The notes beneath the pieces are model-generated. The model was not told the DNA's origin. It searched no databases and saw only the letters and a list, made by a program, of their open reading frames with translations. DNA of 64,000 bases from Coriobacteriales bacterium (GTDB taxonomy: Bacteria > Actinomycetota > Coriobacteriia > Coriobacteriales > UBA8131), in assembly GCA_031277035.1 (NCBI GenBank), contig JAISLY010000060.1, forward strand, positions 21,012-85,011. The letters run 5' to 3'. The translations under genes were made by a program, and so were the position numbers. Numbering within the stretch: the stretch's first letter is position 1; each line of letters begins with the position of its first letter. Of the stretch, positions 1,467-51,398 are shown one piece after another.

Positions 1467-2084
1467 TCAGCCAATCGCCTGATCATTGAGATGTCTGCGC
1501 AGGATTTTGCGGCTGCGGTACAAACGGCTCTTGACAGCAGGAACAGTCGTCTCGGCCGCAGCCGCAAGGTCGCGCAGACTTTCGCCGTCAAGGTAGTGAC
1601 GCTCAAGCAGCTCTCGCTCCATGTGTGGAAGCGTTTCGAAGGCGGAGGGCGATCCGTCAGGGCCATCGGCCATCTCAAGGTGCGCCCTGTCAGCGACCGT
1701 GCCTGGGTGCTCCCTGTCAGCGACCGTACCAGGGTGCGCCCTGTCAGCGGCCGTGCCAAAGTGCTCCCTCTCGAGGTTCTCCATATCGCCAACCGCCAGT
1801 TCCGGTCGCAGTGAGCGCAGTCGTTTGAGGGCGGCGTTGCGCGTTACCACCGCAAGCCAGGGTTTCAGTCGACTGTCCCTGCGAAGCCGGGACGCGACCG
1901 TCCACAGCACGGTAAAGGTATCCGAAGCAAGCTCCTCGGCGTCCTGGCGGCTACCGGCCGTGCCAAGGGTGCGCAGCGCCACCGCCATGACATAGCCGCC
2001 GTAGCGGGCAATCGCCGCCTCCAGGGCCCGAGGCTCTCGTTTCTGGAGGCCCTTGAGCAGCTTGCGCTCATCATCGAATCTCAT
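1467..2084 (-). CDS. ECF RNA polymerase sigma-70 factor
   Basis: Region 2 (DAEELASDTF..LW..LKPWLAVVTRNAALKRLR) and region 4 (SLRDLAAAAETTVPAVKSRLYRSR). AAAGGAG RBS precedes ATG 2084. Confidence 0.92.
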   Translation of the reverse strand: MRFDDERKLLKGLQKREPRALEAAIARYGGYVMAVALRTLGTAGSRQDAEELASDTFTVLWTVASRLRRDSRLKPWLAVVTRNAALKRLRSLRPELAVGDMENLEREHFGTAADRAHPGTVADREHPGTVADRAHLEMADGPDGSPSAFETLPHMERELLERHYLDGESLRDLAAAAETTVPAVKSRLYRSRKILRRHLNDQAIG

Positions 2085-7091: not shown

Positions 7092-9382
7092 GTGATGTTT
7101 GCCGCCGCATAGAACGCTTCGCGTACGGCCTTGGTGACCGTGCCCGCTCTTGCGTTGCAATCGCCCACATGAAAGGTCTGTGCGACCAGATTGTCAAAGC
7201 GCGCGGCCTGCCGCTCCCTCGGCCGCACCCCGACAGAAAGCAGCACGGTGTCGCAGTCAAGCTTGCGGCGCTCTCCTGAGACATCGGCGAGCAGTACGCC
7301 GGCCTCAAGCACTTCCTCAAGCCGCATCTTCTCAAGCGTCTGCACTCCGGCATCGAGAGCCATCTGTCGCAAAGTCGCGCTGATGAGCAGGGAGGTCTGC
7401 GGATTTGCGTCAATCTCTGCGATGGTTCGCAGATCCACCAGCGTGACCTCATGCCCCTTTTGAGCAAGAGAGACGGCGGTCTCGGTCCCGGTCAGGCCCG
7501 CACCGATGATGACGACCCTGCCACCCGGCTGTACCAGGCCTGCATCCGCGTCCACCGCCAGTGCCACGTTTGCGCGATTTATGCCGGGGATGCGGGGAAT
7601 AATCTGCTCGGCACCGATTGCCACAATCAGCGCGCAGGGCTGCTCAGCAACAAGCGCCTCGGGCGTACCCGGCGTCTCCAGGCGGACGTCGATTGCCACG
7701 GCTCTCAGGGTCTCGGCCACCGACCAGTCAAGATAGCGTCGCAAATCTCCCTTGATTGGATTGGCCGAGGCCAGGCGCAGGGTGCCACCCAGATGGCCGG
7801 TGGCCTCGAGGAGGATGACGCGATAGCCGCGCTGAGCAGCCCTGCGCGCTGCCTCCATGCCCGCACAGCCACCGCCGATGACAAGAACCTTCTGAGTAGA
7901 CACGGCTCGAATTGCGGGTGGGGCGAAGGCGAGAGGTGGGGCCTGCTCAACAGGTGGGGCGAGGGTGGGGGCGGATGCGAGAGGTGGGGCCTGCTCAACA
8001 GGTGGGGCGAGGGTGGGGGCGGAGGCGAGAGGCGGGGCCTGCTCAACAGCTGCGACCTGCTCAACAGCTGCAACCTGCTCAATGGACGCGAGGGGGCTCC
8101 TCTCAAAGGCATCGAACTCAAGATTGCGACCGCTTATCGGATTGACCGAACAGCGCAGGGGCTTTGGACAACCATGCGGGTCGTCCCCGGTGCAGATGCA
8201 GCAGCGGATACACGGTCGGATTCGCTCACCTTCGCCACGCCGCGCCTTGTTTACCTGCTCGGGGTCGGCGATAAAGGCCCGTATCATGGCGACCGCATCC
8301 GCCTTGCCCTCGGCCAGGGCCCGCTCGGCGAGCTCCATCGTAAAGGAGCCGACCGTGACCACGGGGATGTCCAGCACCTGCTTAAAGCGTGCGGCGTACG
8401 CCACATTGGTCGCAAGCGGCAGATAGGTAGGCTGGATGACCCGGCTGATTGTCTCCGGCGCCGTCATGTCGCCCACCGAGACGTGGATGAGGTCTATCTT
8501 ATTTTGGATAATCTTGGCAAACGCCAGGGATTCGTCTACCCCGACGCCATCGGGCGTCAACTCGTCGGCGCTGATGCGCCACTCGATGGCCATCTGTGCG
8601 CCGATGCGCTCGCGCACCGCGTCGAGCAGCTCGTTTGCAAAGCGGCAGCGGTTTTCCATCGTGTCGGCCCCGTACTCGTCGTCGCGCTGGTTACGGGTGC
8701 GTGAGTAGAATGTGGAGAGCACATGGCCGTGCCCGCCATGAAGCATAATCAGGTCAAAGCCGCCCTTGTAGCAACGCTCTGCGCTCCGGGCAAAATCCGC
8801 GATGATTCCCCTGATCTGCTCGCGGCTCAGTTCGTGCGGCAGGCGTTCGTCGCGCAGGTTGAGTTCGATGGAAGCCAGGGCGCCATAGCGGTGGATGGCG
8901 TCGGTCACGCGCACGAGCCCATGCACGATAAAGGGATCCGACAGGTTGATGACGTAGTGATTGGCCTCGGCGTAGGCCTGATTGATGGGGCTGTCCCCAA
9001 CGGTCACGATGCCGGCGCCGCCACGCGCCATCGCCGCGGTGAAGCGGATGAACTCCTCGGTCACCTGGCCGTCTTTGGTGGCGAGAAAGGGCTCCGCCGG
9101 TGAAACCTCGATACGGTTTCGGGCGGTGAGTCGGCCAAAGTGCAGCGGCCTGAAGACGTGTGGATAGTGCTGAGGGCTTGCGCTGTCGAGCGGATGGTGC
9201 TGAGGGCTTGTGTCAGGCCGCACATCGCCGCCATCACCGGGCCGCGCATCGCCGCCATCGCCGGGCCGCGCGTCGCCGCCATCACCGGGCCGCACATCGC
9301 CGCCATCGCCGGGCCGCGCCTTCTCTCCGTCAATCTGAACGCTTCCCCCGTCGCTTACGCGGCCTCTGTCGCTTTGCGTCAT
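7088..9382 (-). CDS. Old Yellow Enzyme-family NADH:flavin oxidoreductase (2,4-dienoyl-CoA reductase/BaiCD-like; FMN, 4Fe-4S, FAD)
   Basis: TIM-barrel motifs (ARGGAGIV, GFDLIMLHGGHG, NQRDDEYG..ENRCRF), CIRCCIC..C cluster motif, and two dinucleotide-binding motifs (VIGGGCAG, IIGAGLTG). Confidence 0.9.
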   Translation of the reverse strand: MTQSDRGRVSDGGSVQIDGEKARPGDGGDVRPGDGGDARPGDGGDARPGDGGDVRPDTSPQHHPLDSASPQHYPHVFRPLHFGRLTARNRIEVSPAEPFLATKDGQVTEEFIRFTAAMARGGAGIVTVGDSPINQAYAEANHYVINLSDPFIVHGLVRVTDAIHRYGALASIELNLRDERLPHELSREQIRGIIADFARSAERCYKGGFDLIMLHGGHGHVLSTFYSRTRNQRDDEYGADTMENRCRFANELLDAVRERIGAQMAIEWRISADELTPDGVGVDESLAFAKIIQNKIDLIHVSVGDMTAPETISRVIQPTYLPLATNVAYAARFKQVLDIPVVTVGSFTMELAERALAEGKADAVAMIRAFIADPEQVNKARRGEGERIRPCIRCCICTGDDPHGCPKPLRCSVNPISGRNLEFDAFERSPLASIEQVAAVEQVAAVEQAPPLASAPTLAPPVEQAPPLASAPTLAPPVEQAPPLAFAPPAIRAVSTQKVLVIGGGCAGMEAARRAAQRGYRVILLEATGHLGGTLRLASANPIKGDLRRYLDWSVAETLRAVAIDVRLETPGTPEALVAEQPCALIVAIGAEQIIPRIPGINRANVALAVDADAGLVQPGGRVVIIGAGLTGTETAVSLAQKGHEVTLVDLRTIAEIDANPQTSLLISATLRQMALDAGVQTLEKMRLEEVLEAGVLLADVSGERRKLDCDTVLLSVGVRPRERQAARFDNLVAQTFHVGDCNARAGTVTKAVREAFYAAANIT

Positions 9383-48749: not shown

Positions 48750-48983
48750 ATGTGTTTGGCGATACCAGCCCGCATAGAAAGCATCGGCGATAACCGGCTC
48801 GCGGTAACCGACGTGCTCGGCGTCAAGCGCCAGGTTGCCCTGGACCTCGTGCCACAGGCAAAGGTAGGCGACTTTTTACTGGTTCACGCGGGCTATGGCA
48901 TCGAAGTCATAAGCGAGCAGCTCGCGCAGGAGACCCTGGATCTCATTCGCGAAATTCCCGAGTTGGTGGGAACCGAAGCATGA
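48750..48983 (+). CDS. hypC: Hydrogenase maturation chaperone HypC
   Basis: MCLAIP and LVHAG. Confidence 0.95.
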   Translation: MCLAIPARIESIGDNRLAVTDVLGVKRQVALDLVPQAKVGDFLLVHAGYGIEVISEQLAQETLDLIREIPELVGTEA

Positions 48984-50101
48984 CGATGCCTGATATGGCT
49001 CTGCTCGACTCCTTTCGCGATCCTCTGCTTGCCCGCAGACTGCTTGCGGCCATACAAAACAGAGCGGCACATCTTGCCGAACACACGAAGCGGCCCGTGC
49101 ATCTCATGGAGGTCTGCGGCACGCACACCGTCGCCATCGCCCGATCGGGATTCTGCTCGGTACTGCCCGAGAGCGTCCGGCTCATCAGCGGGCCGGGTTG
49201 CCCCGTCTGCGTAACCTCGAACAGCGACATCGACCGCATCATCGCGCTGACCCGCATACCCGGTGTGACCCTGGCAAGCTTTGGTGATATGATACGAGTA
49301 CCCGGATCGAGCAGCTCCCTGCAGACGCGCAAGGCCGAGGGGGCCGACATAGAGGTGCTGTACTCGCCCCTTGACGCACTGCGACTTGCCCAGGAGCGTC
49401 CTGAGCGGCAGATTGTCTTCGTCGGTGTCGGTTTTGAGACAACCGCGCCGCTGATAGCCGCGACTGTCGAGCGAGCGGTCGCGCAGGGTGTGGAGAACTT
49501 CAGCGTCCTTGTGGCGCACAAGCGGGTGCCGCCTGCCCTGGCGGCCCTCGTCAACGATACCGAAGTCGCCCTCGACGCACTCATCCTGCCCGGGCATGTC
49601 AGCACCGTGATTGGCAGTGAGCCCTATCGCTTCCTGGCCCGCGACCACAACATCCCCGGGGTCATCACCGGCTTTGAGCCCCTCGACGTGCTCCAGGGTA
49701 TCGCGCAGCTGCTGGAACTGCTCGCGGCGGGGCGGGCGGACATCGAGATAGCCTACCGACGCGCCGTCCATGTTGAGGGAAACCCGACCGCGCTGGCTGC
49801 CCTGGAACGGGTCTTTGAGCCATCGGATGCCACCTGGCGCGGACTTGGTCGGATTGCGCAGAGTGGCTATGTGCTGCGCGAAGAGTTTGCCGCCTTTGAC
49901 GCATTGCGCCGCTTCTCACCAGAAGTCGAGCCGACCGTCGAGCCCCAGGGTTGTCGATGTGGAGAGGTGCTGCGCGGTGTCATGGCGCCGGGCGACTGCC
50001 CTCTGTTCGCGCGCGTGTGCACACCCGCACACCCCGTTGGCCCCTGCATGGTCTCCTCGGAGGGCAGCTGCGCGGCGCATTATCGCTATCGGAGGGGATG
50101 A
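48980..50101 (+). CDS. hypD: Hydrogenase maturation protein HypD
   Basis: MEVCGTHT, GPGCPVC, GFETT, PGHVS, and CMVSSEGSC. Confidence 0.96.
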   Translation: MTMPDMALLDSFRDPLLARRLLAAIQNRAAHLAEHTKRPVHLMEVCGTHTVAIARSGFCSVLPESVRLISGPGCPVCVTSNSDIDRIIALTRIPGVTLASFGDMIRVPGSSSSLQTRKAEGADIEVLYSPLDALRLAQERPERQIVFVGVGFETTAPLIAATVERAVAQGVENFSVLVAHKRVPPALAALVNDTEVALDALILPGHVSTVIGSEPYRFLARDHNIPGVITGFEPLDVLQGIAQLLELLAAGRADIEIAYRRAVHVEGNPTALAALERVFEPSDATWRGLGRIAQSGYVLREEFAAFDALRRFSPEVEPTVEPQGCRCGEVLRGVMAPGDCPLFARVCTPAHPVGPCMVSSEGSCAAHYRYRRG

Positions 50102-50195
50102 GCATGGGCGATACCGTCCTTTTGCCTCCGCACTTGATGTTAAGTAATGATTCAGCACATCGGAGGGGATGAGCATGGGCGATACCGTCCTTTTG
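50088..50195. repeat. Perfect 37-bp direct repeat separated by a unique 34-bp insert
   Basis: ATCGGAGGGGATGAGCATGGGCGATACCGTCCTTTTG at 50088-50124 and 50159-50195. Confidence 0.92.
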
Positions 50196-51398
50196 GCGCA
50201 TGGTTCTGGCGGCTCGATGATGCGAGAGCTCATCGAGGGCCTGTTCTTTGATGCCTATGGCTCCGCAGAACTATTGCGCGGCGACGACGCGGCGATTCTT
50301 GAAACGCTGGCGGCAGGTGGTGCAGATGCCGGACGACTGGCGCTTTCTACCGATACCTTTGTGGTCAGTCCGTATTTCTTCCCCGGAGGAGACATCGGCC
50401 GCCTCGCTGTCTGCGGCACGGTCAACGACGTGGCGACCTCCGGAGCCGTCCCCCTGTGGCTTTCGGTCGGCTTCATCCTGGAGGAAGGCCTGCCGCTGGC
50501 TGACCTCAGAGGTATCTGTGCCTCGATGGCCGCTGCCGCGCGCGAGGCCGGCGTGCGAATTGTCACCGGCGATACGAAGGTGGTCGAGCGGGGGCATGGC
50601 GATGGCATCTACATCAACACGACGGGCGTTGGCCTGTTTGCGCCGGCCCTCGGGTACGCGGACAGCGGCCATCGAGGCACACGGCGGGCCCTCTCGGGGG
50701 CAGACTGTCAGCCCGGCGACCGCGTCCTGCTCTCGGGGACACTCGGCGACCACGGCATCGCCATCGTCTCGGCCCGTGAGAATCTGGGATTTACTTCGAC
50801 GATTGAAAGCGATGTCGCACCCCTGAACCATCTGGTCGCCGACGTGCTTGACCTTGCCCCCCATACGCGATGCTTTCGCGATCCAACCCGCGGCGGCCTG
50901 GCCTCGACGCTCAATGAGCTGGCGATGCAAAGTCAGGTCGCGATTATTGTTGAGGAGGAGGCCGTACCCGTACACGACGCCGTGCGAGGCGCCTGCGAGA
51001 TGCTTGGCTATGACATCTTCCAGGTGGCCAACGAGGGCAAGATGGTGGCCGTCGTGCCTGCGCAGGAAGCCGAGGCGGCGCTTTGTGCGATGCGGGCGAG
51101 CCGTTATGGCAAAGACGCCGCGCTCATCGGCGAGGTCGCTGCGATTGAGGGCGGCGCTGTGGACGGTGTGAGCGCTGCGAGCGCTGTGGGCAGTGTGGGC
51201 GCGGCGGGTGCGGCGGGCGGAGACGGCGGGGGCGCTGTGGGCGCTGTGGGCGCGACGGGCGGAGACGGCGGGGGTGGTGGCAGGCGAACAGACAGAGCAT
51301 ATGCGGGAGCCGAGCCACTTGTCACCGTCCGCACCGCCTTCGGCTCACAGCGCGTTCTCGACATGCTGGTCGGAGAGCAACTTCCCCGCATCTGCTGA
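50169..51398 (+). CDS. hypE: Hydrogenase maturation protein HypE
   Basis: LAHGSGG, GTVNDVA, GDTKVV, RDPTRGG, and C-terminal LPRIC. Confidence 0.96.
   Translation: MSMGDTVLLAHGSGGSMMRELIEGLFFDAYGSAELLRGDDAAILETLAAGGADAGRLALSTDTFVVSPYFFPGGDIGRLAVCGTVNDVATSGAVPLWLSVGFILEEGLPLADLRGICASMAAAAREAGVRIVTGDTKVVERGHGDGIYINTTGVGLFAPALGYADSGHRGTRRALSGADCQPGDRVLLSGTLGDHGIAIVSARENLGFTSTIESDVAPLNHLVADVLDLAPHTRCFRDPTRGGLASTLNELAMQSQVAIIVEEEAVPVHDAVRGACEMLGYDIFQVANEGKMVAVVPAQEAEAALCAMRASRYGKDAALIGEVAAIEGGAVDGVSAASAVGSVGAAGAAGGDGGGAVGAVGATGGDGGGGGRRTDRAYAGAEPLVTVRTAFGSQRVLDMLVGEQLPRIC

Follow-up and report, generated by a model that had tools for sequence, protein, structure and literature searches.

A repeat-filler-repeat unit at a hypD/hypE junction is one of a genome-wide class of insertions possibly left by off-target Cas1-Cas2-type integration

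The 64,000-nt stretch of DNA analysed here, called the window throughout, corresponds to G000:C37:21012-85011, that is, to part of contig C37 of a Coriobacteriales metagenome-assembled genome (MAG; G000) comprising 62 contigs and 1.82 Mb, with 72.7% completeness and 4.5% contamination. In this window the neighbouring genes hypD and hypE are joined by a unit in which two copies of the gene junction flank an unrelated filler, and together with a short bridging open reading frame (ORF) and the ribosome-binding site (RBS) of hypE the locus carries the following features.

48980..50101, plus strand: hypD, an ORF matching Pfam PF01924 HypD at 487 bits
50088..50124, plus strand: repeat copy 1, the native hypD-stop/RBS/hypE-start junction with the first 9 hypE codons
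50098..50172, plus strand: bridging ORF of 24 codons, created by the insertion and matching no Pfam family
50125..50158, plus strand: filler of 34 nt, unlike both flanks
50159..50195, plus strand: repeat copy 2, the junction now serving hypE, with a GGAGGGG RBS and the ATG at 50169
50169..51398, plus strand: hypE, intact, 409 aa, matching NCBIfam TIGR02124 hypE at 401 bits

The 37-mers at 50088-50124 and 50159-50195 are identical in 37/37 positions and lie 71 nt apart from start to start, and the 34 nt between them (50125-50158) have a G+C content of 15/34. A first-pass annotation of this DNA had described a perfect 37-bp duplication of the junction around a unique 34-bp insert of this composition, and our identity and copy-number checks agreed with it, as the 34-mer is single-copy both in the window (0/100 shuffles matched) and in the 1.82-Mb genome, where its next-best match is 12 nt. 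The probability that an exact 37-mer would recur by chance no more than 120 nt away in 1.8 Mb was estimated to be far below 1e-10. The whole 71-nt addition therefore consists of a junction copy plus 34 unrelated bases, giving a unit of 108 nt in total. Given that G000 is rich in short tandem duplications (1224 runs in the scan described below), the unit could be read as an old 71-nt tandem duplication with a diverged middle, but this reading is scarcely credible because it is contradicted by 37/37 repeats standing beside a middle at chance level: compared at a 71-nt offset, the filler agreed at 7/34 positions with the stretch following repeat 2 and at 9/34 with the one preceding repeat 1. The predicted RNA fold of the filler was unremarkable (z=0.33) and lacked a hairpin, no Rfam family was found in the window, no promoter-like site was found, and a single chance-level terminator-like hairpin is located in the native junction.

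The last 14 nt of hypD, TGA stop included, fall in repeat copy 1. The bridging ORF begins at the old hypE ATG, sharing an ATGA overlap with the hypD stop in copy 1, and ends at the duplicated hypD TGA, sharing an ATGA overlap with the hypE ATG in copy 2; it closes there because the 71-nt period equals 2 mod 3 and the filler is stop-free in that frame, the remaining two filler frames containing stops. The 24-aa mini-ORF that had been proposed to overlap hypD and hypE in this manner was thus recovered with the same 24 residues at 50098-50172. The event was in our view tolerated because the duplicated stretch includes the stop of hypD as well as the RBS and start of hypE, and since the period is 2 mod 3 the 24-codon ORF links hypD and hypE by ATGA overlaps, so that translational coupling can persist. 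The case would thus be one of a gene junction that absorbed 71 nt and kept both genes and, as predicted from the reading frames, their coupling.

An older and diverged duplication of its own hypD/hypE junction was found in G008, a member of another genus (L003, G008:C89, reverse strand, ~1950-2100 of the reversed locus), with a period of 77 (also 2 mod 3), a 6-nt indel, a filler of ~28 nt and a bridging ORF of 25 codons ending on the hypE ATG. That two independent junction events should both preserve the chain of coupled ORFs has a 1/9 chance under neutrality, which is a hint, not proof, that coupling at hypD/hypE is under selection. The relatives are distant: hypE relatives in metagenome_contigs showed at most 67% amino-acid identity, DNA identity to the closest GTDB relative is 71%, and a search of a 5.8-billion-cluster protein collection with the P-type ATPase of this species returned its own entry only, with the next best 66% identical. 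Because the nearest relatives are that distant, no empty hypD/hypE site was shown. In a further relative (L018, G017:C7) a cation-diffusion-facilitator-like ORF of ~1 kb lies between hypD and hypE.

We then scanned G000 for exact runs of at least 16 nt at offsets of 20-300, which yielded 1224 runs, 944 of which (77%) have a period divisible by 3, and retained as units those whose middle was unrelated to the flanks and whose repeat was not part of a shorter periodicity. Fillers of 33-38 nt occurred in 13/25 filtered hits with repeats of at least 27. The footprint seen at hypD/hypE was directly observed at 11 core loci, with repeats of 32-37, fillers of 33-38 and periods of 66-71 (5 perfect, 6 with one mismatch), and at 14 loci when 3 weaker units (28/33, 27/33 and 24/31) are included; a genome scan for other 30-40-bp duplications with unique inserts had been proposed as a check. 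The units are given below by contig and start, with repeat/filler lengths.

C37:71099, 37/34, perfect (the hypD/hypE unit)
C32:4288, 35/35, perfect
C45:58043, 35/33, perfect
C29:13771, 34/34, perfect
C61:9419, 33/34, perfect
C21:14524, 34/34, one mismatch
C45:25549, 34/33, one mismatch
C25:56847, 33/33, one mismatch
C30:22068, 33/33, one mismatch
C45:42334, 33/38, one mismatch
C48:25675, 32/37, one mismatch
C25:24858, 28/33, weaker
C30:7124, 27/33, weaker
C60:7855, 24/31, weaker

The core repeat lengths (37, 35, 35, 34, 34, 34, 33, 33, 33, 33 and 32) fit a fixed 33-bp duplication extended by chance matches at its ends: for 0, 1, 2 and at least 3 extra bases over 33 bp, 6.2, 3.1, 1.2 and 0.5 units were expected and 5, 3, 2 and 1 observed (n=11). 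With the duplication set at 33 bp the fillers measure 33-38 and the hypD/hypE unit becomes 33 + 38, so that its filler may in truth measure as many as 38 nt if the 4 additional identical nt are due to chance. Over the 11 core units the fillers averaged ~0.59 G+C, like the genome, indicating that the low value at hypD/hypE is not class-wide, and 5/6 of the repeat mismatches are transitions. A second size class with a period of 101 was also present in G000 (n=2; C58:41586-41726 and C43:34710-34841), in which a perfect or near-perfect target duplication of 31-40 bp encloses a filler of 61-70 nt; in both fillers a hairpin precedes the common motif GCGAGCCTGCGAGC, one of them matches C52:2226-2256 (30/31), and the C43 unit sits between apparent tRNA genes.

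Long ORFs with a high G+C at third codon positions make up at least 77% of G000, and 10/14 units were nevertheless located in intergenic DNA or at the ends and junctions of genes, including a second stop/start junction between two same-strand genes at C45:25549; by our own estimate the binomial probability of at least 10/14 units falling outside ORFs is ~2e-4. Two of the remaining units lie in frame inside ORFs (period 60, in the hypervariable linker of a P-type ATPase, and period 69), one splits an ORF of 371 aa and one alters a C-terminus. This placement off genes and the transition-rich mismatches argue for real DNA under selection. The ORF-splitting case, the 28/33 unit at C25:24858-24946, leaves ORFs of 184 aa and 212 aa and is the sole clearly gene-breaking unit; the ORF that it splits resembles a proline-rich membrane-anchored protein.

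Two other origins had been raised for the hypD/hypE unit, and the genome-wide class bears on both. According to one, the 37-mers are the attL/attR attachment-site cores, or a long target-site duplication, of an integrative or transposable element that was later deleted down to 34 bp. A single point speaks for it, namely that integrated elements typically show direct repeats of a target located at a gene end, and we regard it as very improbable: ten other loci have unrelated fillers of 33-38 nt, where deletion remnants would not be size-matched; neither an element nor the 34-mer was found at the hypD/hypE junctions of 16 relatives (0/16), and at no more than 3 mismatches the 34-mer did not occur in any of 150 genomes of the order; and there is no adjacent integrase among the ORFs. 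According to the other, the event was triggered by repetitive extragenic palindromic (REP)-like elements together with a Y1 transposase, as the repeat ends in a REP-like 12-mer. The core CCGTCCCCTTTG has 68 copies and CCGTCCCTTTTG 21 copies in the genome, the repeat end equals CCGTCCCTTTTG minus one C, and TTTTG stands in or at the edge of 3/11 core repeats. The exact 12-mer, however, occurs only in the two repeat copies, where it encodes the HypE N-terminus, the filler has neither REP sequence nor hairpin, and most other units lack the motif; to our knowledge, moreover, Y1 transposases leave no long target duplications. The REP-linked origin thus seems highly doubtful as well.

The origin of the filler could be traced for 3/14 units, for which a source was found elsewhere in G000 (35/35, 34/35 and 31/34 identities). 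The filler of C25:56847 is a copy of window 2041..2075 (C37:23052-23086, minus strand; 35/35), covering codons 4-15 of an extracytoplasmic function (ECF) sigma-factor gene; that of C21:14524 copies C51:15845-15879 (34/35), within a long ORF; and that of C32:4288 is similar to C2:92648-92681 (31/34, all three differences being transitions), which lies in the 5' part of an RNase HII ORF. Since this last source is diverged and yet stands beside perfect repeats, the comparison suggests that the donor may have been a related strain. The self-DNA origin of these fillers was observed directly, as were their blunt junctions: the identity with the source continues into the repeat for 2, 1 and 0 nt at one junction and for 0 nt at the other, and such a 0-2 nt identity therefore indicates blunt joins, as in the ligation or integration of a fragment, and not template switching. 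The triplet CGA can be read directly 5' of the copied stretch in 3/3 sources and TTC in 1/3. Four other G000 fillers had 0 exact viral matches, the C32 filler was absent from the 150 genomes of the order and from genome_contigs, comparison of the G000 fillers with 2.66 Mb of relatives' loci gave nothing at E<=0.05, and the fillers of units found in two relatives (G009 and G011, below) had no second copy within their own genomes.

Units of this kind were also present in relatives. In 0.94 Mb scanned of G021 we found 14 units with a period of 64-70, and G011 carries a 30/42 unit (period 72) 10 kb from its own CRISPR array; no units were found in ~300 kb of other relatives' assemblies. In G009, from a third genus, a perfect 35/38 unit with a period of 73 lies immediately after hypE (L005:2464-2571, G009:C165). 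The units are so far confined to MAGs of one bacterial family, and family biology and assembly pipeline are inseparable here.

This distribution bears on the concern that the cell lacks the units altogether, and that they arose as artefacts when the library was prepared or when a metagenome of mixed strains underwent de Bruijn assembly. The contig ends of G000 have exactly 119 nt in common, which points to a de Bruijn assembly with a final k of 119, and G021 is likewise a k=119 assembly whose contig ends share exactly 119 nt, so that the two unit-rich genomes are both MAGs and seem to share an assembler setting. Every unit, in addition, comes from MAGs of one family, with none in 1.2 Mb of a long-contig genome from another family and none in the ~300 kb of relatives' assemblies, and the one-base difference between copies in 6/11 core units could reflect single-nucleotide polymorphisms between strains. 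On the other side, a single 119-mer can hold the whole 108-nt unit, which means that reads or earlier contigs must contain every junction, and we found no graph path that puts unrelated DNA between two passes of a 33-37-mer. Random artefacts, furthermore, would not spare genes as 10/14 units do, with 2 more in frame, and the fillers that were traced derive from far-off places in this genome and share no homology at the junctions. Taken together, an artefact appears improbable.

We therefore compared the units with the CRISPR systems of the family, in which cas1 was present in 7/34 genomes. The arrays found there were as follows.

G021: repeat 33 bp, spacers 33-36 bp, period 66-69
G011: repeat 36 bp, spacers 33-37 bp
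G005: repeat 36 bp, spacers 34-45 bp
G005, second array: repeat 36 bp, spacers 26-30 bp
G046: repeat 37 bp, spacers 35-44 bp
G003 and G024: repeat 28 bp, spacers 33 bp

The core units of G000 share the geometry of the G021 array. In that array the leader ends in GCG and is followed by a repeat starting with GTCGC, forming an 8-nt leader-repeat junction, and the G000 target at C45:58043 equals this junction in 8/8 positions (random-site probability 8.5e-5); across the 14 G000 targets the mean match was 3.86/8, compared with 3.02 at random sites (p=0.006), a slight enrichment.

These observations led us to favour, tentatively, the possibility that the hypD/hypE unit is the footprint of an off-target Cas1-Cas2-type integration, that is, a 'neo-CRISPR' unit, as the first-pass annotation had also proposed. 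By this mechanism the target would be nicked on both strands ~33-37 bp apart, a pre-formed DNA fragment of ~34-38 bp would be joined in without microhomology, and gap repair would duplicate the stretch between the nicks. The enzyme would be Cas1-Cas2, the integrase of CRISPR adaptation, working away from an array, most likely from a system with 33-bp repeats and 33-38-bp spacers, as in the same-family relative, and its gene may lie in the unassembled 27% of the genome or may have been lost. We know of no enzyme other than Cas1-Cas2 that produces such an insertion with these sizes. The proposal thus draws support from the geometry, from the genome-wide class of 11 core units and from the cas1 genes of the family; no cas genes or array came to light in the assembled part of G000, nor a protospacer for the 34-mer in the collections searched. 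A cas1 gene associated with matching geometry, whose absence from the lineage had been named as counter-evidence, was found in the family and neither in G000 nor in the same-genus G001, and a CRISPR system with 36-37-bp repeats, which it had been proposed to look for in the genome itself, was represented by family arrays (36-37/33-45 and 33/33-36) and by no array in G000.

Several results weigh against an off-target Cas1-Cas2 origin. Cas1, Cas2, Cas4, Cas7 and Cas3-HD (PF01867, PF09827, PF01930, PF05107 and PF18019) and CRISPR arrays were all absent from the assembled 72.7% of G000, and Cas1 was not found in G001, which is 77% complete. The hypD/hypE 34-mer, for which a comparison with phage, plasmid and self sequences had been proposed, had no exact match in viral_contigs, metagenome_contigs or genome_contigs, gave chance matches only to phages (E>=0.4) and plasmids (E=3), and was present at up to 3 mismatches in 0/150 other genomes of the order. 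Sources were not found in assembled G000 for 11/14 fillers, nor within the scanned 0.94 Mb of G021 for any of the 20 G021 fillers tested. TTC is the PAM (protospacer-adjacent motif) of type I-C, and the candidate CGA differs from it. The 16 listed units of G021 (the 14 with a period of 64-70 and 2 with a period of 60-61) showed no resemblance to their own leader-repeat junction, with a mean of 2.5/8 compared with 3.0 at random sites. GCG outside the repeat, tried as a boundary signal, occurred at 5/28 unit boundaries (p=2.3e-3) and was rejected, as it fails correction for 64 trimers. The identical parts of the G021 units, moreover, range over 22-39 bp with sharp edges and the fillers over 29-47 while the period is kept at 64-70, and residual similarity past the edge was detected in only 3/7 short-repeat units; a strict ruler is therefore not supported in G021, where the period and not the duplication is conserved. 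G003, whose sole detected cas1 is I-E-like and whose array is 28/33, has one unit in 172 kb with a 36/28 geometry and a period of 64. Finally, G029, a member of another family with a 1.53-Mb contig, an I-C-like cas1 and an array of at least 43 repeats, had 0 units in 1.2 Mb.

The variation among relatives could instead reflect an undescribed, CRISPR-independent insertion-plus-duplication process in this bacterial family, which would add a near-constant 64-73 nt by filling staggered cuts with a short piece of DNA, either the cell's own or foreign, and with a compensating duplication of the target, gene junctions such as hypD/hypE being tolerated sites. Such a process is suggested by the G021 period of 64-70 in the face of repeats of 22-39 and fillers of 29-47, by the occurrence of units under differing or no detected CRISPR types (none in G000; I-E only in G003, 36/28, period 64; G009, 35/38, period 73; G011, 30/42, period 72), by the lack of cas genes in G000 and by its second size class with a period of 101 and a hairpin-bearing filler. 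Set against it, no enzyme or known mechanism yields a constant sum; in the short-repeat units of G000 it is the filler (31-38) and not the sum that is constant (28/33, 27/33 and 24/31); the core repeat lengths of G000 fit a fixed 33-bp duplication; and the period is the one that repeat plus spacer give in the CRISPR arrays of this family. We judge this process rather unlikely, while keeping it under serious consideration; the lack of cas genes in G000, the varying duplication length in G021 and the missing likeness of the G021 units to their leader-repeat junction leave room for it and, to a smaller degree, for an artefact.

The integration reading can also be set beside known routes of insertion. 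Target duplications by transposable elements span a few to ~15 bp and flank a defined element with conserved ends; the present units resemble them in that staggered cuts, gap repair and direct repeats flanking an insert would be involved, and differ in the ~33-bp duplication and in inserts that have no sequence in common. Short-patch double illegitimate recombination relies on microhomologies, and its products replace sequence with no long target duplication; it likewise brings short pieces of own or foreign DNA to ectopic sites, whereas the junction homology here is 0-2 nt and the target is duplicated. Off-target Cas1-Cas2 spacer integration giving neo-CRISPR units is said to have been described by Nivala, Shipman & Church in 2018 (reportedly in Nat Microbiol 3:310). 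Passages of papers citing that work (bioRxiv 10.1101/148544, PMC6698737, PMC11788318) describe it in E. coli only, with over-expressed Cas1-Cas2, and give circumstantial natural evidence in two other species. As in neo-CRISPR units, a repeat-length duplication of ordinary chromosomal DNA surrounds a spacer-length unrelated insert, the fillers include own DNA, and the sizes equal those of same-family arrays (33 + 33-38). Unlike that precedent, 11 core (14 with the weaker) natural units occur in one genome, the assembled part lacks cas genes and the duplication length is variable in a relative. In a study of Pyrococcus furiosus Cas1-Cas2 in vitro, off-target integration occurred at sites sharing features of the repeat (PMC6698737). 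This would predict a likeness between off-target sites and the leader-repeat junction. In line with it, one G000 target matches in 8/8 positions and the set is slightly enriched; at odds with it, the G021 units lack such resemblance.

Our literature searches returned no natural genome reported to have many such off-target events. If the CRISPR reading is true, G000 would provide 11 core (14 with the weaker) natural events that can be dated, whose target sites are known and for three of which the donor site is known too, and with them material on the birth of CRISPR arrays, the host cost of adaptation and tolerant sites. If Cas1-Cas2 was not responsible, the units would point to an unknown route of DNA insertion in bacteria.

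Further repeats were noted in the same genome. The load of short-range direct repeats is very high in G000, with 1224 runs where the scanned 0.94 Mb of G021 held 209 and 1.2 Mb of G029 held 214, and most of those in G000 resemble in-frame tandem duplications and low-complexity protein inserts, for example at window 7929-8049 (C37:28940-29060). Tandem REP-like units of ~34 nt break the assembly at the contig ends of C17, C40, C2, C36 and C57, and a cluster of 70-76-nt repeats with hairpins lies at C25:23417-23912 (23.4-23.9 kb). Within hypE itself, a perfect 19-nt inverted repeat is formed by 50517-50535 and 50663-50681, with arms 127 nt apart, and in HypE the C-terminal PRIC end is preceded by an insertion of ~60 residues rich in Gly, Ala and Asp (residues ~330-390, window 51150-51350), where G+C rises up to 0.80 and the relatives' alignments span less.

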